64,000 nt of DNA, from contig CAWETW010000001.1 of NCBI GenBank assembly GCA_963812155.1, positions 736,001-800,000 of the forward strand. The letters run 5' to 3'. This stretch comes from Vulcanimicrobiota bacterium (GTDB lineage: Bacteria > Vulcanimicrobiota > Vulcanimicrobiia > Vulcanimicrobiales > Vulcanimicrobiaceae). Below, piece by piece: positions 48,045-58,455 of this stretch. Position 1 is the stretch's first letter. Every line of letters starts with the position of its first letter. A program made the translations under genes and the position numbers. Below the pieces are notes generated by a model. It was not told where the DNA came from, did not search any database, and saw nothing but the letters and a program-made list of their open reading frames with translations.

Positions 48045-48577
48045 CGCCGCGCCGACGCCTTGGCTTTCTTCTGCGTCTTCAAGAAGTACACGAGCACGCG
48101 CTTCTCTTCGCGGAAGCCGACCAGACTCTTGGACTGGGCGGGATCGCGCAGCGCCTCGACGGCGCAGAGCGCGGCTTCGTCTTGCGCGGCGGGATCCGCA
48201 TCGAGATGATCGTCCGGCACGGGATTGCGGACGAGCGCGTCGCCGAAGCGATCGCCGAAGAATGCGACCTGAAGCTCGAGTTCCTCTTTAGTAAAACTCT
48301 CCAAGTCCCGGGTGACGTGGACGAACGTCATCGCTCGGTCGCTCTCACATTCCAGCTCCAGCGTTCCGGCGTCGTCTTTGGACAGCGACAAGAAAGCGCG
48401 CACGTGATCGTCGATGGCTTCGACGAGGTCGCTCTGTGCGGTGCGGTCGAGCCGGCGGCGCAACGCGAAGGTGAGCCGCAGAGTCCGCTCGCCCGGCAGC
48501 GAGCGAACCGACGCAACTTCCGGAAATCGCACGAGCAACGCGCAAATCAAGCTCACCGTGTCGGCATTTTCGACCAT
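48041..48577 (-). CDS. Hypothetical protein
   Basis: GGAG RBS; 178-aa ORF coupled to ymdB; codon usage consistent with coding. Confidence 0.7.
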   Translation of the reverse strand: MVENADTVSLICALLVRFPEVASVRSLPGERTLRLTFALRRRLDRTAQSDLVEAIDDHVRAFLSLSKDDAGTLELECESDRAMTFVHVTRDLESFTKEELELQVAFFGDRFGDALVRNPVPDDHLDADPAAQDEAALCAVEALRDPAQSKSLVGFREEKRVLVYFLKTQKKAKASARR

Positions 48578-48684
48578 GTGCAGACTCCCATTTCCACCGA
48601 GTTCAGTAGCGGCCAGAGGCGGGGGTCTCGACAGTACGACGCCGACCCAAGGCCTCCCCGCGCCCTCCCGTAGAATGAACCCAG

Positions 48685-49236
48685 GTGACCCTCCGCGGGA
48701 TTCCGGGGGCCCTGGTCCTCGGGTTGCTTGCCTCGCTCGTGGCGCATTCGGCGCTCTACGGCGGCGGCCACGCCATGGGCGGCCCGTACCACTCCTGGTT
48801 CCTGGAACTCGGGCTAGCGGGCTGCCTCGGACTGCTCGCCTCGATTGCCGCGCTGGCTTGGACCGGCTCGCGGGCAGCCGCCGACGGCTCGGTGCTGGCC
48901 AGCCGCTTGTGTGAACGCTTGCCCGGAGGGTGGGCGGTCTTCGCCGCGGCGGGCCTCTGGTTCGCCCTCGGCGAGCGCGTCGAGGCGCGCCATGCCGATC
49001 CCAATGCGGTCGTGACGGCGCTGGTTTTGGCCGTTGCCGTATGGGCCGTCTGGGCGGTCGCGCGCTGGTGCGTCCGGCTTCTCGCCGGCGCAGCCATCGC
49101 CATCGGACGCCCGGCCTTCGCTCAGCGGTCGCCGCACTGGGTGCGCTGCGCGGCTCCCGCGCCGATCGCTCGACGCTCGCCGCTGCTGCGGCGGCGCTTC
49201 GCCCGTCCTCCTCCGGTCGCGAACGCCTGCGCGTAA
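48685..49236 (+). CDS. His-containing membrane protein with C-terminal RPPP (putative arrest-peptide leader)
   Basis: About four hydrophobic helices; AHSALYGGGHAMGGPYH; ends RRRFARPPPVANACA. Confidence 0.7.
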   Translation: MTLRGIPGALVLGLLASLVAHSALYGGGHAMGGPYHSWFLELGLAGCLGLLASIAALAWTGSRAAADGSVLASRLCERLPGGWAVFAAAGLWFALGERVEARHADPNAVVTALVLAVAVWAVWAVARWCVRLLAGAAIAIGRPAFAQRSPHWVRCAAPAPIARRSPLLRRRFARPPPVANACA

Positions 49237-49278
49237 CGCGCAGATCCTCGTTCGCACTCGCTTCTTTTCACCGGAGGA
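49209..49278 (+). promoter_or_regulatory. SD-sequestering stem-loop spanning the RPPP codons, the leader stop and the downstream RBS
   Basis: TCCTCCGGT/ACCGGAGGA (9 bp), GCGAACG/CGTTCGC (7 bp) and CTGCGCG/CGCGCAG (7 bp), with TAA as the apical loop. Confidence 0.75.
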
Positions 49279-49281
49279 TTT

Positions 49282-50196
49282 ATGTTTCGCATTTACGCGG
49301 CGCTCGGCGCCGTGCTCGTTTGGATTCTCATGGGGCGGGGAACCGCACAGGCGCACGTCGTCTGCGGAGACCGCGTCTTTCCCGCCACCTTAACCATGGA
49401 CGATCCCGGCGTAAGCGACGAGGTATCGCTACCGACGGTCACGCTCACCCCGACGTCGTCGGCACAAAGCAATACCTACGGCTTCGAATGGGATAAGACT
49501 ATTACCGAAGACTTGGGCTTCGGAATCAGCAACGATCTCATCACGCAGCGCAGTCCGGGCCAGAGTTACGCAGGATGGGACAACTGGGAGATCACGCTTA
49601 AGGATCAGCACCCCTGCAGCGAGGTGCACCCTCGCCAAGAATTCGTCTGGGCGGTCGGTGTAGTTCGCGACTTGCCGCTCAGCGGTTCGAAGCAGCTTCG
49701 CGATGCGGGTATCATCGAGGACGTCGGATCCACCTCGGCAACTTTTTATTTCGGCAAAGGCTTTGGCACCGCGTCCGGGTACCTGCGCCCGCTCGCAATC
49801 ACCGGCGAATTCAGCCGCGATTTTTCCGATAACGCCGGTGAGAGTCCGGCCGCGTGGAGTTACGCAGCGTCCTTTCAGTACTCGATGCCTTACCTTCAAC
49901 AGAATGTGAAGGCGCTGCACATTCCGCAATTTTTCACACGCTTGACACCGCTCGTCGAGGTTGCGATGAGTAGCCCCGACAGCGGCGGCACGCCCACGGG
50001 GACGATTTCGCCCGGTTTCCTCTATGATGCGAACACTTGGCAGATAGGTGCCGAGGCCGTCATCCCGGCCAACGGAGCCTCGCGCTTAGAACAAGGCACG
50101 GGATTTATCGTTCAATATCACTTATTTCTCGACTCATTCAATAAGAGTTTCTTCGGCAGGCCACTCGTCAATACAAATCTTTGGGGAAAGCCATGA
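49282..50196 (+). CDS. Secreted, probable outer-membrane beta-barrel protein in a cop operon
   Basis: Signal peptide ending AQA, mature N-terminal His (HVVCGDRVFPATL..DDP.V.DE); aromatic amphipathic strands. Confidence 0.6.
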   Translation: MFRIYAALGAVLVWILMGRGTAQAHVVCGDRVFPATLTMDDPGVSDEVSLPTVTLTPTSSAQSNTYGFEWDKTITEDLGFGISNDLITQRSPGQSYAGWDNWEITLKDQHPCSEVHPRQEFVWAVGVVRDLPLSGSKQLRDAGIIEDVGSTSATFYFGKGFGTASGYLRPLAITGEFSRDFSDNAGESPAAWSYAASFQYSMPYLQQNVKALHIPQFFTRLTPLVEVAMSSPDSGGTPTGTISPGFLYDANTWQIGAEAVIPANGASRLEQGTGFIVQYHLFLDSFNKSFFGRPLVNTNLWGKP

Positions 50197-50564
50197 ACGC
50201 ACGGATTATCGCAACGCTCTTCTTGCTCGCCCAACTGCTCGTAGCTCCGGCTGTGGTTCGAGCGCACGCATTTCTCGACCATGCCAATCCCGAAGTAGGT
50301 AGCACGGTATCAGCCGCACCCACAGTAGTGCATGTTTGGTTCACGCAAGAACTCGAGCCGGCATTTAGTTGGGTGCAAGTGACCGACAAATCGGGGCAAT
50401 CCGTAGCCGACGGTTCTTCGGCGGTCGATCCTAACAATAAACAGGAGATGGACGTCAAGCTCAAGCCGTTGACGGCCGGAAGCTATACGGTAAAATGGCA
50501 TGCGTTGTCGGTCGATACACACACGACCCAAGGCGACTTCACCTTTCAAGTCAAGGGGAGTTAA
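50193..50564 (+). CDS. copC: Copper resistance protein CopC
   Basis: AHAFL...NP..GS.V..AP, YTVKWHALSVDTH...G...F; ATGA overlap. Confidence 0.92.
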   Translation: MNARIIATLFLLAQLLVAPAVVRAHAFLDHANPEVGSTVSAAPTVVHVWFTQELEPAFSWVQVTDKSGQSVADGSSAVDPNNKQEMDVKLKPLTAGSYTVKWHALSVDTHTTQGDFTFQVKGS

Positions 50565-50567
50565 GCC

Positions 50568-52541
50568 ATCGATCCGCTCCTGAGCGCTGTGCGAATGCTC
50601 CATTTCGCGGCGAGTGTGTCGCTAGTTGGTGTATTCGTATTATGGTGCTTCATCGTATGGCCCGCCTTTCGCCGCACGCCGGCAGCACTAACGTTTGAGG
50701 GGCGGTGGGACCGGTCGCTCTTCGTGCTGGCTTGGGTGAGCCTGCTCGCCGCACTCATAAGCGGCGGCGCTTGGCTTGCCATCGTTGCAGCGAACATGAG
50801 CGGGATGCCCCTCGCTGGGGTCTTTCAGGGCGGCACCATCAACGTCGTCTTGACGCAAACGCACTTTGGCGCAGCGTGGATCATACGCGCCGGACTTATT
50901 ATCGTCCTAGCAGCGTGTTTGGCCGTACAGGCGCGGAGTCGCAAACATGTGGCAGGCTGGGTCGGACTCATCGCTGCCGGCGCGTTTATTGCCTCGCTGG
51001 CATGGGCCGGCCATGCTGCAGCGACCGAAGACGTGCCGTTCGACGCCGTTCATCTGCCCTCCGACGTTTTGCATTTACTGGCATCAGGCGGCTGGCTCGG
51101 CGCCCTGTTGCCGCTCGTTCTCTTCCTTGCTCAAGCATCGCGCGACAATTTCCCGCCGATGGTTGAGGCTGCGTGTACGGCAACGCGGCGGTTTTCGGTG
51201 CTTGGGATCACGTGCGTGGGAACGTTGATCGTAACCGGCGTTGTGAACACATGGTTCCTAGCAGGCAGCGTTCCAGCATTGCTCGGAACGTTATACGGTC
51301 AACTCCTACTCCTCAAAATAGCGCTATTCGCGATGATGATTATCTTAGCGAGCGTCAATCAGCGGCGACTCCTACCTCGCCTCGCCGGCGCTATGAGGGA
51401 TCCCAATTCTCCTTTGCAAGAACTTCGGCAGGTGGTCCGCAACGCGTCCGTCGAGTCCGGAATCGGCGTCCTCGTTCTTGCCATCGTCGGAATCATGGGC
51501 ATACTGCCTCCGGGACTGCACACCGAGCCACGCTGGCCGCTTCCATTTCGGTTTGATATAAACGAGATTCCACCGGGTACGCAGCCGGCGTTCTACGCCG
51601 CCGCCGCCGCTTTCGCCGTCAGCCTGATCGCCACGCTCGTTATCGCCGAGAGAAAACGCTACCGCGTGATGCCCGCCTCCATTGCCTTGGCCGTCGTTTT
51701 CGGCATCGTTAGTTGCGTTACGCTGCGCTCTGGAATCGTGCGTGCATACCCCACGAGCTTCTATGCGTCGACGCAGGCCTTCGCCGCACCGTCCATCGAC
51801 CGCGGGGCTCCGCTTTACGTAAAGAACTGCCTTATATGTCACGGAGCCACCGGCCGGGGTGACGGTCCGCTTGCCGATCAGCTTGCGGTTCGTCCGGCGA
51901 ACTTGATCGAACCACATCTATTCGCACATAAACCGGGCGAAGTGTTCTGGTGGATTAGCCACGGTAGCGACAATGGGGTTATGCCGGGTTTTGCGGGCAA
52001 GCTGTCTCCCGACCAACGGTGGGATCTGATCAATTTCGTGAAGGCGCGGGCGGCGGGGGTTCTCTCGCAACAGATAGGGTCGCAAATCACTACGGCCACG
52101 GCATTCCCGTTTCCGGATTTTGCGTTCGCGCAAGACGATTCGCAGAGTACGCTGAGCGAACTCCTCAAGAAAGGGCCGGTGCTTGTGGCAATCTTTGCAA
52201 CGCCCATACCGCGAGCGCGATTGGAGCAACTGGCGAAATTGCAGCCGCGACTGGCCGCCGCCGGCCTGCACCTTGTCGCGGTCGATCTCGGCCCAAGAAC
52301 CAATCGCGCGACTCCAGTAGTGAATGTGTCACAGGATGTTACGGCAACGCTCGCTTTGTTTCGCTCTCCCAAGGACGGCGGGGAAACAGAGCTGATGCTC
52401 GATCGAGGCGGCAATGTTCGTGCGCGGTGGACGGCAAGCGGAGTGGCAGGCCTTGCCAGTGCTAACACTCTACTTAGCGATGCTAGCCGGGTTGCGCGCA
52501 TTCCAGTGGCGGCTGCGAATCACGCCGGTCACGCTCCTTAA
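50568..52541 (+). CDS. copD: CopD fused to cytochrome c and a C-terminal thioredoxin-like domain (start ATC 50568 or GTG 50589)
   Basis: GHAAA, HLLASGGWLGAL, RFS, TGVVN, YGQLLLLKI; CLICHG heme motif, MPGF; C-terminal LDRGG.VRARW. Confidence 0.85.
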   Translation: MDPLLSAVRMLHFAASVSLVGVFVLWCFIVWPAFRRTPAALTFEGRWDRSLFVLAWVSLLAALISGGAWLAIVAANMSGMPLAGVFQGGTINVVLTQTHFGAAWIIRAGLIIVLAACLAVQARSRKHVAGWVGLIAAGAFIASLAWAGHAAATEDVPFDAVHLPSDVLHLLASGGWLGALLPLVLFLAQASRDNFPPMVEAACTATRRFSVLGITCVGTLIVTGVVNTWFLAGSVPALLGTLYGQLLLLKIALFAMMIILASVNQRRLLPRLAGAMRDPNSPLQELRQVVRNASVESGIGVLVLAIVGIMGILPPGLHTEPRWPLPFRFDINEIPPGTQPAFYAAAAAFAVSLIATLVIAERKRYRVMPASIALAVVFGIVSCVTLRSGIVRAYPTSFYASTQAFAAPSIDRGAPLYVKNCLICHGATGRGDGPLADQLAVRPANLIEPHLFAHKPGEVFWWISHGSDNGVMPGFAGKLSPDQRWDLINFVKARAAGVLSQQIGSQITTATAFPFPDFAFAQDDSQSTLSELLKKGPVLVAIFATPIPRARLEQLAKLQPRLAAAGLHLVAVDLGPRTNRATPVVNVSQDVTATLALFRSPKDGGETELMLDRGGNVRARWTASGVAGLASANTLLSDASRVARIPVAAANHAGHAP

Positions 52542-52608: not shown

Positions 52609-54952
52609 CTAGCGTTGTGGGGTGGCAAACCGGCACCCCACTTCGAACGTGCGTCCGGAGGCATAGTGGTCGCCCTGGGCATTCTGGTAGGTGATTCGGT
52701 AGCGATCGTTCAGAACGTTGTAGACGGAGAGCGTGAGTGCCGTTCCACCGCGCAACCCAATCCCCTTAACGAAGTCGAACGTCGTATGCGGCGGCACTTT
52801 GCACGAGAAGCTTGCCGGCATGCAGTAATCCGACGATAATCCCGAACCGTACTCGGCGTCGATCGCCAGCCAGCCTCCGCGACGGTCGTTGGCGAGCATA
52901 CCGCCGGTTGCGTCCCAGTTCTGGTCGTGATCGGCGGGCGTCCACCCGGCCGGCGCGCCGAAGCACGGCGCCAGCAACTGCGTTTCGCAGCCGGCATTGA
53001 CCGAGCGCACGTGCGTCAACGAAATATAGGCGCGTCCGCCCGCCGTCAACGGCATTTGGAAGTAGGCGCTCTGCACCGAAACGTTGCCGGCGGCGTAGTT
53101 GATGTCTTGGTGCAGGGCGGTGACGCCGACTTGCGTGTCGTCGATGAGGTCGACGGCGTCTTTCTGCATCAGACGGGCGCCGAGATCTCCGCGCCCGACC
53201 GGAAGATGACCGCCGATTTCGAAGACGCTGTCGCGCTGCGGTCGTAAGTCGAACGTCACCGGCGACGGTTGATCGGGAAGGTTCAACAGATGTGCGGCGC
53301 TCGGCGAGACGTTCTCCAAGGAAAACGGCGTAAAGAACCGGCCGAAGTACGCGTACGCCGAAGCCCGATTCCCCCACAGCCGCGTGAGCTTGATGCGCGG
53401 GCTCGTCTGTGCGAAGCCTTCCTGGAACTGCGTCGAGAAGATCGTGAAAAAGTCTTGGCGGATTCCGGCGTCGAGCAGCCAGATCGGCGACATCGCCCAC
53501 GAATCCTGAAGATACGCGCTGCTCGTGTGGCCGGCGTTGGGCGTGTCGTCGACGACGGCGATCGCCGCATCGGGATGCTCCGGCGTCAACACCGGAGCCA
53601 GGAAGTTGTGCGGCTGCAGGGTCACCGCATAGTTCTTGTCGACGAGCGTCACGTCGTAAGACGCGCCGTAACGGATGGTGTGCTTGCGGTCGTCGAGCAG
53701 ATCGTCGAAGTTCACGATCAGGTCGCGCGCCGTTCGGTCGGCATTGAGGCTGTAGGCGCAGGCCGCGACGCTGCCGTTGGAACAGTCGTCCGCGCGATCC
53801 GCCCGCGGCGACGTTGAGATTGTAGCCGTAGGTAAAATCGTTCGGTGCATCGCCGAAATCGCGAATGCGCGATTGCTTGTAACCGAGGCCGTAGCTGAAG
53901 GCGCCGCCGGACGCGAGCGCGTGGTGCACTTGCGCCGCCAGGAACGAATCGCTCTGGGTTTCGTTGTCGTCGGTGACGGCCGGCTCTCCGCCCGCGACGT
54001 CGTTGGGAATCTGGAAGGACTGATAGGAGTGGATGAGCGTGACGTTCGCATAGTCCTTACCGAAGGGAACCGCGTAGCGCAGGAACGCGTTCGTCTGCGA
54101 ACCGTCGTCGTGGACGGCGGTGAAATTGGGAGGGTCGAGGAAGCGATCGCCCTGCGACGCCGCCAGCGCCAGCGAGAGTTGCCCGCTTCCCGCGGGAGCG
54201 TGTACGTTCACGTACGACGTGTAGGCGGCGTACGATCCGGCTTGCGCGTATCCCGAAGCGCCGGCCGATCCGTTCCCGATGCGCGTATTGACGTTGATTA
54301 CGGCCGCAAAGCGCCCGCCGTATTGCGCCGGAAACGCGCCCTCCACGACATCCATGAATGCGATGTCGCTGGGGTCGATCTCGCTGCCGACCTCTCGGTT
54401 GAGTTCTTGAGGGACCGCAACGCCGTCGACGTAGTAGTTGATGTCGCCGTGATCGCCGTTGATGTGCACCACGCCGTTGGCGCCTCGCGCTGCCGCGGGA
54501 AGTTGTAGGAGCGTCTGCGGCAACGATCCCTGGTAGGGCATCCGGTCGAGCATCGTCTGATTGAGCGTCACGTCCGTACCCGAGCCCTTTACCGGCGGCC
54601 GGGAGACGTTCGCGGCCACGCGGCCGACGGTTGTCAGCAGTTCGATCGTCACCGAAGCGCCGCTCGCGGCCAGGTCCACGATCACGAAGCCCTCGCGATC
54701 CTTCGAGCGCGCCGTGAGCCGGTAACTGCCCGGCGGAAGACCGGTAAAGACGAACGCGCCGTGCACGTCGCCCTCTCGCCGCAGCCGCAAGCCGGCTCCT
54801 TCGAGTGTGATTTGAGCTCCGGAAACGGTCCGCCCGAAGCCGTCGACGACGCTTCCCGTGAGGGTCGCCCCTCCGGCGGCTCGCGCCCCGCCATCGAGCA
54901 AGGCGGCCAGAAGCAGGCACGTGAGCGAACATGCGAAACATTTGCAAATCAT
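52609..54952 (-). CDS. TonB-dependent receptor with N-terminal carboxypeptidase regulatory-like domain; +1 frameshift at ~53795; start uncertain
   Basis: LTGSVVD..G..V.GA, GLPPGSY; plug HINGDH...YYVDGV, GAFPAQYGGR; barrel AYLQDSW, DAGIRQD, SPRI, DHDQ, YNVLNDRY. Confidence 0.85.
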
Positions 54953-54962
54953 GATTTGCAAA
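54941..54962. promoter_or_regulatory. Perfect 22-bp AT-rich palindrome TTTGCAAATCATGATTTGCAAA, candidate operator
   Basis: Perfect dyad at the 5' end of the TonB receptor, between divergent genes. Confidence 0.65.
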
Positions 54963-56809: not shown

Positions 56810-57379
56810 CTAGCGCAGCACCTTTTTCAACGCGCCGTCGAGCTCGGCGTACGACAGCTCGCCGGAACCGAGATACGATACGACCTTGTTTTTTCCGACG
56901 ATCGCGATCGTCGGAAAGCCGCCTTGCAGGTAACTGTTGGCGACGCCGAGCGAGGCATCGTATGCAACGGGATACCGCACGTTAAACCGCTGCACCCACA
57001 TGAGAAGGTCGGCTTGCGACGCGGGCGAGGTACCGTCGATCGCCGTGTCGCTGCCGGAGACGCCGAGAAAATCGACCTGCGCGCGATGTTTTTGATAGAG
57101 GCGGTCGATGACGGCGGTCTCGCGCTGGCAATGCGGACACCAGGTCGCAAAGACCTCGAGAAACAGCGGCTTCTCGGAGTTCTTTAACACGAAGAGTCCG
57201 TTCGTGGTCGAAACGCTGAAGTCTGGGGCAGGCTGCCCGACTTGCGCTTTGCCCAACACCGGCGCCTGCGACGCCGAGGTGAGCGGGTGGGACGGTCGCA
57301 ACGAATACCAGGCGATCGCCCCAACGGCGATAACCGCGATGACGACGATCGAGAGCACCGCAAGTCCGCGTTGGTTCAT
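56810..57379 (-). CDS. TlpA family disulfide reductase/redoxin
   Basis: VGQPAPDF, FATWCPHC, GFPT. Confidence 0.9.
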   Translation of the reverse strand: MNQRGLAVLSIVVIAVIAVGAIAWYSLRPSHPLTSASQAPVLGKAQVGQPAPDFSVSTTNGLFVLKNSEKPLFLEVFATWCPHCQRETAVIDRLYQKHRAQVDFLGVSGSDTAIDGTSPASQADLLMWVQRFNVRYPVAYDASLGVANSYLQGGFPTIAIVGKNKVVSYLGSGELSYAELDGALKKVLR

Positions 57380-57813
57380 GAAGTTCGAAATCTCCGGTCG
57401 ACGGCGAGCGCACCCGGCGCACGGTAGGCAATAAATGCGCTCGCAAGAGCGAGTAAGAGGTCGAATGCCGCGTGCGGCCAGTCTGCCACGGCTATGTCGC
57501 CCGGGCCGAAGCACCCGCAGTCGGCGTGGATGTGACGCATCACCGCCGACGCAACGACGGCTGCATACACGAGGAATTGCACGCAGGCAATCGTTGCTGC
57601 GAGGCGCGTGAAGACGCCGATAACGAGATAGAGTCCGAGCATGAGTTCGAAAAATGGCAGACCCAGGGCCAACGGTCCCACGACGGCCGCGGGAAGCAGA
57701 CGAAACCCCGCGATCGCCGCCGCGAGCGCAGGCGCGTGACCAACCTTGAGGGCGCCGGCGACCATGAGTAATACGCCGATCACCAGGCGGCAGGCGAAAA
57801 CGGCAGCGTTCAC
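57376..57813 (-). CDS. MauE/DoxX family membrane protein
   Basis: R..IG.L...AG..K, LP..ELMLG, DCGCFG. Confidence 0.88.
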   Translation of the reverse strand: MNAAVFACRLVIGVLLMVAGALKVGHAPALAAAIAGFRLLPAAVVGPLALGLPFFELMLGLYLVIGVFTRLAATIACVQFLVYAAVVASAVMRHIHADCGCFGPGDIAVADWPHAAFDLLLALASAFIAYRAPGALAVDRRFRTS

Positions 57814-57894
57814 GGCGCCTTTCGTTGCGCCGAACCGGGAGCGGCGACCTCTTTCAGAGCGCATCCGCGCCACTCGGGCGTACTATGAGAGAGC

Positions 57895-58455
57895 ATGGAT
57901 CTCCGCATCCGCAACCTCTCCCGGCTGGCGGCGGCCGCCATCGCCGCGATTCTGGCCGCTTGCGCGGCGCCGGGGCCGCGTGCGCCGGGCTTCACGCTGA
58001 CCGACGATAGCGGCCGCCCCTGGGCGCTCGACGGGCAGCGCGGCAATCCCGTCGTGCTGACGTTCGGCTTCACGCACTGCGCTGATACCTGTCCCGAGAC
58101 GCTCGCGAAACTGGCGCGGCTGCGCCGAACGCTGGGAGCCGGCGCCGGCAACGTTCGCATCGCGATGGTCAGCGTCGATCCGCGTCGCGACACGCCGGCC
58201 GTGCTGCACCGCTTCGTCGGGCAGTTCGACGGGCCGGTCGTCGGACTGACCGGCGCGCCGGCCGACGTTGCGACGGTGGAATCCGCCTACCACGTGTGGG
58301 CGCAACGGGTGCCGGGACGCGCTCGCCGCGCCGGCACGTACGACGTCGTCCACTCCGCCATCATCTACTTCATCGATCCGCGCGGAACGATACGCGACAT
58401 CAGCGACGACGGCGCGTCCGATGCGACGTTGGCGCACGCCATGACGCGGCTGTAG
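57895..58455 (+). CDS. SCO family copper chaperone (lipoprotein)
   Basis: LAAC lipobox; FGFTHCADTCP, SVDPRRDTP, VHS..YFID. Confidence 0.9.
   Translation: MDLRIRNLSRLAAAAIAAILAACAAPGPRAPGFTLTDDSGRPWALDGQRGNPVVLTFGFTHCADTCPETLAKLARLRRTLGAGAGNVRIAMVSVDPRRDTPAVLHRFVGQFDGPVVGLTGAPADVATVESAYHVWAQRVPGRARRAGTYDVVHSAIIYFIDPRGTIRDISDDGASDATLAHAMTRL

Follow-up and report, generated by a model that had tools for sequence, protein, structure and literature searches.

What does a small membrane-protein gene do when it stands directly before a copper operon? The question is raised by a 64,000-nucleotide stretch of a Vulcanimicrobiota genome (GenBank assembly GCA_963812155.1, contig CAWETW010000001.1, positions 736,001 to 800,000 of the forward strand), which we call the window; its numbering is used throughout, and features lie on the plus strand unless stated otherwise. 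At 48685-49236, a gene with a GTG start encodes 183 amino acids and has the C-terminus FARPPPVANACA ahead of its stop codon. A sequence-only reading had proposed that its terminal Arg-Pro-Pro-Pro (RPPP) stalls the ribosome and that the codons concerned sequester the next gene's Shine-Dalgarno (SD) sequence. The coordinates, open reading frame and C-terminal end that it gave were all correct, and the leader is real, conserved and probably an arrest-peptide switch. To the explanation that we favour, an arrest released by metal and coupled to SD unmasking, we assign a probability of roughly 55%; within it, copper is the metal that we somewhat lean towards. Published systems are cited here from the consulted sections of each source.

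A membrane leader family ending in R-x-P-P

Homologs of the leader numbered 137 at E ≤ 0.001, and 119 among the 120 matches listed had an R-x-P-P C-terminus, the remaining one being a partial sequence. The family comprises 216 clusters at 50% identity. Three alignments were built, namely A1 (92 of the 120 listed homologs), A2 (68 divergent members) and A3 (24 members of a RAPP subfamily). A profile search was positive in 171 of 301 sampled genomes of the phylum and in 166 of the 206 from the window's own family, with four weak matches elsewhere (tallies that include four genomes flagged as unpublished). The leader is confined almost wholly to this one family of the Eremiobacterota.

Gene context and RNA features were compared at 93 loci (the 3 closest, 30 further ones and 60 hand-picked towards paralogs and weaker matches), a sample that is not random and whose kin are not independent. 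These loci hold 95 leader copies, or 90 after five duplicates were dropped, and are counted below as 90 loci. The R-x-P-P motif was present in 90/90, as RPPP in 88 and RAPP in 2, and a distance of 5-14 codons separates the Arg from the stop in 88; both the conservation of the motif and its short distance to the stop hold across the family. R174, P176 and P177 were invariant in 92/92 sequences of A1 and 68/68 of A2. Among 110 representatives of 160-210 amino acids, 95 ended in RPPP, 10 in RAPP and 5 in neither, and in front of one and the same receptor either RAPP or RPPP can occur. The natural candidate core here is mostly RPPP. In ApdP, RPPP supports arrest in Bacillus subtilis (2.4 versus 1.9 units for the wild type) and partial arrest in Escherichia coli (491 versus 152); in ApdA arrest is partial (12.9 versus 3.0 for the wild type, non-arresting variants exceeding 20), proline being permissive or partly so at the second motif position (PMC12992588). 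RAPP-like words in proteomes mostly do not arrest (PMC10987492). In the window the candidate core occupies 49204-49215 and, by analogy with ApdA, ApdP and CruR, would arrest with P176 in the P site and P177 in the A site.

The AlphaFold2 model of the leader (predicted local distance difference test score 83) has four long helices (6-28, 33-61, 82-99 and 108-141) and an Arg-rich, disordered tail of low confidence. Lys and Arg counts under the positive-inside rule place the N terminus, loop 2 and the tail inside and the His/Glu-bearing loops 1 and 3 outside; the multi-pass protein proposed earlier is thus predicted to cross the membrane four times. The residues invariant in A2 are His21, His29, Pro80, Glu97, Arg174, Pro176 and Pro177, and Glu100 is kept in 67/68 sequences. 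His36 (50/68) and His103 (56/68) are both lost in the RAPP subfamily. His21, His29 and His36 (48745-48792) fall at the end of helix 1 and in loop 1, and Glu97, Glu100 and His103 (48973-48993) at the end of helix 3 and in loop 3, both on the predicted outer face, where the core ligands would be two His and two Glu. The earlier idea of a His-ligand site therefore stands for His21 and His29 and has to be widened, since Glu97 and Glu100 belong to the set too. There is no conserved Cys column in the alignments and no CxxC or CxxxC metal motif. Met31, considered as a further ligand, was ruled out, being present in only 29%. The spacing from Glu97 to Arg174 is 77 residues in 86/92 sequences of A1, 75-80 in 67/68 of A2 and 78-79 in 22/23, and it is constant despite the poorly conserved sequence of the tail.

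No Pfam or NCBIfam family matched the leader. That it lies outside DUF2946 (PF11162), as had been claimed, was confirmed: neither the window leader nor any of the 68 A2 members matched that profile at E ≤ 0.1, hhalign gave a probability of 0.3 against one DUF2946 protein, and the DUF2946 layout of a single N-terminal export signal with a short soluble domain differs from the predicted four-helix leader. A Foldseek search of the model against the PDB returned nothing at E ≤ 0.001. MacB/FtsX-type four-helix domains (best VIA-align match, Z 8.5, root-mean-square deviation 4.3, 142 residues aligned) were not taken as kin, being below the tool's threshold for helical bundles, and DUF6412 (ESM Atlas, 0.81) was set aside as a chance-level lead; the other ESM Atlas clusters were unnamed.

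The same genome carries a second leader (C3:1223749-1224396, 216 amino acids) with an Asp/His-rich outer loop, an RGPP motif and an SD hairpin, before an 842-amino-acid TonB receptor; the locus spans G000:C3:1223749-1226969 (L152:1250-4470). Its family was found in 48/151 genomes and has RGPP or RAPP in 29/30 loci. In profile-profile comparison it aligned over its whole length with both A2 (probability 78, E 1.8e-5) and A3 (probability 92.5, E 4.8e-7), bringing His21, His29, Glu97, Glu100 and the motif into register; the paralog family has additional invariant Asp residues. The relation emerged only from this comparison of profiles, a single paralog sequence giving no match to the leader family profile (probability 0.45).

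Pairing of the motif codons with the next Shine-Dalgarno sequence

The codons of the candidate arrest core and the SD sequence of the following gene are complementary. The anti-SD strand TCCTCCGGT (49209-49217), which a ribosome arrested on the motif would cover with its footprint, pairs with the SD strand ACCGGAGGA (49270-49278), which 3 nt separate from the ATG at 49282; together with that start codon the SD strand spans 49270-49284. In both the minimum-energy and the centroid structure of 49190-49300, this 9-bp stem encloses two nested 7-bp stems (49219-49225/49249-49255 and 49227-49233/49237-49243), with the TAA of the leader (49234-49236) as the apical loop, exactly as the sequence-only reading had drawn it. 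The predicted fold has an energy of -46.2 kcal/mol (z = -3.89), and 0/200 shuffles were as stable. The inner part (49219-49255) varies within the family and the stop position is not fixed. The stop codon lay in the hairpin loop in only 49/89 loci, which rules out an obligatory position there; its place is incidental and dispensable. A pyrimidine-rich bulge 5' of the SD strand (49256-49269) is a possible standby or Rho-loading stretch and may re-pair weakly with the SD.

Since Pro-Pro codons resemble an anti-SD on their own, chance was tested separately through codon use. P176-P177 is encoded by CCT-CCG in 61/90 loci, compared with 187/3574 Pro-Pro pairs in coding-like reading frames of this genome. 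CCT serves for P175 in 61/88 and for P176 in 72/90 loci, as against 57/712 (8%) of the other leader prolines and 6.5% genome-wide. The SD was paired with motif codons (probability >0.5) in 70/90 loci. When the pairing register was anchored on the two Pro codons alone (69/88 loci anchored, 68 of them unique), the first base after PPP was Watson-Crick paired in 56/68, versus 30.7 ± 3.8 in shuffles, as A-U in 34, G-C in 19 and C-G in 3; slid registers scored 0.14-0.23 versus 0.54 in the true one. Along the leader tree, the pair has switched between A-U and G-C 8 times or more. RNAalifold, applied to 22 close loci, recovered the same outer stem and the compensated pair, and barely the inner stems. 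The anti-SD pairing is thus both conserved and covarying among homologs.

The predicted cost of opening the SD and start codon, computed for 88 loci once two with long spacers had been dropped, had a median of 11.9 kcal/mol in native sequences; a stalled-ribosome footprint, assumed to extend to position +15 of the P-site codon, lowered it to 7.2, and recoding with synonymous codons lowered it to 7.3. The corresponding values for the window are 12.2, 6.3 and 6.1, and the drop with the footprint was at least 3 kcal/mol in 63/88 loci. The rare CCT codons, the compensatory A-U/G-C pair and this drop in opening cost are evidence that the hairpin is under selection. The hairpin signal is weaker in the RGPP paralogs, with a drop of at least 2 in 16/29 loci.

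The motif itself is also selected as protein. R174 is encoded by five different codons, and in four loci (L078, L081, L150 and L151) whose pairing strand has shifted 3' to the following codons the motif is kept with other codons; this free codon choice and persistence point to the amino acids. The observation bears on plain translational coupling, in which there would be no lasting arrest, a passing ribosome would open the hairpin, and the leader would be a working membrane metal-binding accessory protein. Because the anti-SD lies within coding sequence, transit alone would melt its pairing, and basal coupling of such a kind is reported (PMC10987492). The large, well-folded membrane domain would suit this explanation, as would EF-P, which the genome encodes together with Rho. 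Plain coupling leaves unexplained why the pre-proline Arg is invariant despite its free codon choice, why the motif is restricted to RPPP, RAPP or RGPP, and why the Glu97-Arg174 distance is fixed across an unconserved tail. We consider it improbable.

The region between motif and SD raises a second alternative, in which arrest and metal release would occur as in the explanation that we favour, the hairpin would be secondary, and the main output would be Rho-dependent termination, as in CruR (PMC9426467). From the tail to the SD, C exceeds G by more than 0.1 in 86/90 loci; C is in excess in 84/84 spacers, and the 16 nt before the SD strand are 71% pyrimidine. Set against this C-richness, which stems partly from the Pro codons, the distance from Arg to the start codon is 59-93 nt in 85/90 loci, short compared with the 162-nt cruR spacer (PMC9973294), and the covariation targets the SD itself. 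Termination as the main output is hardly probable, and the least so of the explanations weighed here.

Target genes and their exchange

The genes behind the switch were classified from BLAST clusters and from Pfam searches of representatives. A TonB receptor is first in 67/90 loci, a barrel-like protein in 11, a fusion of CopC, CopD and a signal peptidase in 6, AhpC/TSA in 3, and cytochrome c, SCO and an unassigned gene in 1 each. The fusion genes (L060, L061, L067, L068, L089 and L090) start with TTG and encode 673-679 amino acids, the peptidase domain being of type S26. Where the barrel gene is first, copC is always next. The linkage to copper genes that had been proposed holds for the non-receptor targets, 21/23 of which have CopC/CopD, SCO, multicopper oxidase or DUF1775 (which we take to be YcnI-like) among the first two genes; it does not extend to the main target, the receptor. 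The receptor has invariant His177, His549, His696 and His746, and a search for its substrate gave no NCBIfam family above cut-off and no OprC match. Receptors also predominate as targets at distant loci, those of the RAPP subfamily included; in the two RAPP-subfamily loci scanned for CusF this gene comes first, one order being leader-cusF-receptor-SCO.

These targets also bear on the sign of the response. As in CutF, the arrest could be weak by default and prolonged by metal binding to the inserted helices, so that the genes would be on in copper excess. CutF works in this way with a proline-rich motif and an SD-hiding stem-loop (PMC9973294; 10.1101/2025.02.05.636593), RPPP is a weaker core than RAPP or RGPP in ApdA and in E. 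coli (PMC12992588), and potentially detoxifying genes do occur, with multicopper oxidase following in L050 and L055 and CusF in L136 and L143. Such an opposite sign sits poorly with 67/90 first targets being TonB importers and with the swap of RAPP and RPPP before the same receptor. CopC/CopD, SCO and DUF1775 are, moreover, mainly acquisition or delivery proteins; they are also CruR-operon genes (PMC9426467). We judge the opposite sign unlikely, and the most credible of the alternatives.

A further possibility is a monitor of the MifM/SecM type, in which insertion force alone would release the arrest and couple envelope-protein synthesis to Sec/YidC capacity, with no metal involved. The architecture fits (a localisation signal, a C-terminal R-x-P-P and an SD hairpin; PMC10987492), nearly all targets are exported and six have a signal-peptidase domain. 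None of the 90 first downstream genes is sec or yidC, so that the adjacency to secA, secDF or yidC typical of monitoring substrates is absent; invariant outward His and Glu would be needless for insertion, and the non-receptor targets are copper genes. We regard such a monitor as very improbable.

In the window, the controlled gene (49282-50196) encodes a 304-amino-acid exported protein with no Pfam or NCBIfam match; PF13557 occurs in 27% of the members of its nearest named ESM Atlas cluster, a lead towards an outer-membrane barrel, which the protein probably is. It is followed by copC (50193-50564; PF04234, E 8e-23) and by copD fused to cytochrome c with a weak AhpC/TSA-like tail (50589-52541; PF05425 and PF13442, NF033808 above cut-off), in agreement with the barrel-like protein, copC and copD-cytochrome c named earlier. 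The mature barrel (codon 49354-49356) and mature CopC both apparently have His as their first residue behind an A-x-A signal cleavage site, and the barrel homologs seen share it.

Colinearity between the window and its two nearest relatives (DNA identity 92% and 84%) ends at 49317, once 36 bases of the controlled gene have been passed; beyond that point the relatives encode an 806-808-amino-acid receptor, and they rejoin the window at 54927/54954. The first ~12 codons of the barrel gene are homologous to the start of that TonB receptor gene, with the junction near 49317. It follows that a copper cassette here replaced a receptor behind an intact switch. A copper operon as the ancestral target was ruled out, the receptor being the main target of the family. 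The segment 52573-52661 matches (76-84%) the L001 and L002 receptor gene at its 3' end and trailer and is probably a remnant of the replaced gene. On the minus strand at 52609-54961, a TonB receptor gene lies in two overlapping frames (a frameshift or an assembly error); it is ~30% identical to the nearest relatives' receptor, is placed head to head-away from the epimerase gene and is absent there in L001 and L002. Genes for redoxin, MauE/DoxX and SCO1/SenC at 56810-58455, 2-3.5 kb past the replaced receptor site, are a weak hint of copper context.

Such exchange has recurred: the leader tree shows 13 or more changes of target class. Receptor-start-like sequence opens each of the 11 barrel genes and each of the 3 relay cistrons, above a shuffled null, a resemblance to which shared signal-peptide composition may contribute. 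The relay cistrons occur in L042, L051 and L055, where the SD opens a reading frame of 16-17 codons with a stop that overlaps the start codon (ATG) of an AhpC/TSA gene. This frame is apparently what a frameshift left of the signal-peptide start of the old target, and it is possible that it hands the switch to the captured gene. The leader copies of L050 and L056 stand in tandem at a distance of 4 kb, and each is followed by a cassette of its own (cytochrome c-oxidase or barrel-copCD, with the receptor next).

The barrel-copC cassette is also found behind other leaders. Barrel homologs were found on 9 plasmids, and in each of the 4 records opened the barrel gene precedes copC. On plasmids of Paraburkholderia atlantica and Caballeronia M1242 (Burkholderiaceae), an annotated DUF2946 gene ending in RAPP stands directly before barrel-copC; on that of Methylocystis rosea, an unannotated frame with a Cys pair and RAPP (L185, ~750 bases before 3968) precedes barrel-copC-copD; and on a Nitrobacter plasmid the barrel gene is internal to a longer copper cluster. 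DUF2946 was above cut-off in 0/201 genomes of the phylum, with one weak match, and no leader homolog was found in the plasmid records searched. The simplest reading, and a likely one, is that one arrest-leader sensor domain was replaced by an unrelated one before the same cassette, which likely makes our leader an unnamed stand-in for the copper switches CruR and CutF.

Upstream of the leader, a conserved candidate promoter-like pair, AAGG ... TAGAA (48647-48676), ends ~8 nt 5' of the GTG. The pattern AGG-N17-21-GAA was present in 50/65 loci, versus 0.4 in shuffles, while an SD-like word preceded the leader start in only 3/65; a sigma-70 consensus sought in the same region gave no match. With no SD before the GTG, the leader may be translated from an mRNA that is leaderless or almost so, and the motif suggests a promoter of an alternative sigma factor; it could also serve the divergent gene at 48577. 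One metatranscriptome contained 0.11 of the words, in five short pieces, none covering the hairpin.

Proposed metal-gated arrest and its known counterparts

We propose the following sequence of events. Complementarity and covariation link the codons of the stall motif to the SD. The four helices would insert co-translationally, with His21, His29, Glu97 and Glu100 facing the periplasm and ~35 residues between helix 4 and the P site. Arrest with P176 in the P site, modelled on ApdA, ApdP and CruR, would bring the whole anti-SD into the decoding centre, and the computed footprint of such a ribosome roughly halves the opening cost of the binding site. By covering the Pro codons, the stalled ribosome would leave the next gene's ribosome-binding site free, and the gene would be on while metal is scarce. 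The last step is the weakest: periplasmic metal, most likely Cu(II), would clamp helices 1 and 3 and pull, via helix 4 and the fixed-length tether, on the ribosome, which would be released. The hairpin would then close and the uptake genes (the TonB receptor in most relatives, barrel-copC-copD here) would be off; Rho may add polarity.

Several points weigh against this mechanism. We infer the arrest, the metal and the sign of the response, and take the spatial clustering of the ligands from the predicted topology. The 2His/2Glu set, having no Cys or conserved Met, fits Zn, Ni, Co, Mn and Fe as well as Cu(II). The main target, a TonB receptor, has no copper signature, and the multicopper oxidase and CusF targets, which could be detoxifying, would favour the opposite sign. 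At the RNA level, the SD lacks pairing to motif codons in 20/90 loci and the opening cost falls by less than 2 kcal/mol in 18/88. Even with the footprint, the SD is predicted to be mostly paired to a weak local partner, the pyrimidine bulge, its median unpaired probability being 0.21 and exceeding 0.7 in 1/90 loci. Finally, a phylogeny-aware test of independent pairs had only 5 pairs (3.4 the same way, 0.1 opposite) and was not significant (p 0.25).

A broader picture, which we offer tentatively, joins these observations into a lineage-wide superfamily of polytopic nascent-chain metal sensors. A His/carboxylate clamp between helices 1 and 3 would transmit force over a fixed-length tether to an R-x-P-P core, and paralogs with retuned ligands (2His/2Glu; His with an Asp-rich set in the RGPP paralog) would gate different TonB receptors for different metals. 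The module would be portable, capturing operons by fusion into the signal-peptide codons of the old target or via a relay cistron.

PMC12992588 and PMC9973294 name as an open question by what means a metal on the outside of the membrane frees or holds a ribosome on its inside. The leader family offers a tractable case: four invariant ligands on a folded four-helix domain, a tether of fixed length, and both RPPP/RAPP/RGPP variants and compensatory stem pairs that occur naturally. It could also serve as a flag for metal-uptake operons in a little-studied soil phylum. If, as suggested, the place of DUF2946 was taken by a sensor domain unrelated to it, Pfam and surveys restricted to RAPP and RGPP overlook metal-gated arrest leaders.

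A multi-pass, His-ligand, non-DUF2946 arrest peptide of RAPP type before a metal gene is already published in kind, as SLIV_18480 of Streptomyces lividans, and an enrichment of RAPP/RGPP leaders ahead of TonB-receptor and copper genes is on record as well (PMC12992588). The principle is therefore known; what is new is the sensor domain, the natural RPPP core, the substitution for DUF2946 at the head of the same cassette, the swapping of targets and the relay cistron. A literature search found no paper on the leader family, the supplements of PMC12992588 having been covered in part, so that the others may bear on novelty. The term Eremiobacter was absent from the consulted text of that paper and from the supplement text searched. 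In the searched part of its list of upstream RAPP reading frames, four family motifs were absent and a fifth, generic one gave 18 rows, unrelated by eye. A Streptomyces control locus sought through PF07987 was not obtained.

SLIV_18480 is the closest known system in concept. It shares with our leader four predicted transmembrane segments, a predicted His-based metal site, a motif of the RAPP class, shown there to arrest, and a metal-related downstream gene (PMC12992588). Its predicted site consists of three His and a Met with a Cys pair, whereas our leader has no conserved Cys, Met31 in 29% and two invariant Glu; its Arg is at 273 (source data) rather than 174, the two proteins being compared by these features. 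ApdA/ApdP, SecM and MifM likewise combine an R-x-P-P core and a localisation signal with an SD-sequestering stem opened by the stalled ribosome (PMC10987492; PMC12992588), but they control sec or yidC genes, and the core here is mostly RPPP.

CutF of Rhodobacter capsulatus, a DUF2946 protein, has a proline-rich stall motif, an SD-hiding stem-loop and periplasmic metal sensing by the nascent chain (PMC9973294; 10.1101/2025.02.05.636593). It differs in being a secreted CxxxC protein with a Cu-induced stall and a detoxifying oxidase as its target, whereas our leader is predicted to be polytopic and stands mostly before importers. CruR (Bp2923), the DUF2946/PF11162 leader of Bordetella pertussis (PMC9426467), for which arrest is shown (PMC12992588), is unrelated in sequence, has one export signal and a CxxC where our leader has four predicted helices and 2His/2Glu, spaces ligand and motif by 45 instead of ~77 residues, and acts through Rho termination rather than the apparent SD masking seen here. 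Like our leader, CruR stands at the head of a TonB receptor gene or of CopC/SCO/YcnI-type genes, ends in R-x-P-P, keeps a fixed ligand-to-motif spacing (CxxC to RAPP in DUF2946; PMC9426467) and has a proposed metal release of arrest, and in two plasmids DUF2946 genes head the very same barrel-copC cassette. The leader is not a DUF2946 member yet, by these analogies, probably works like one.

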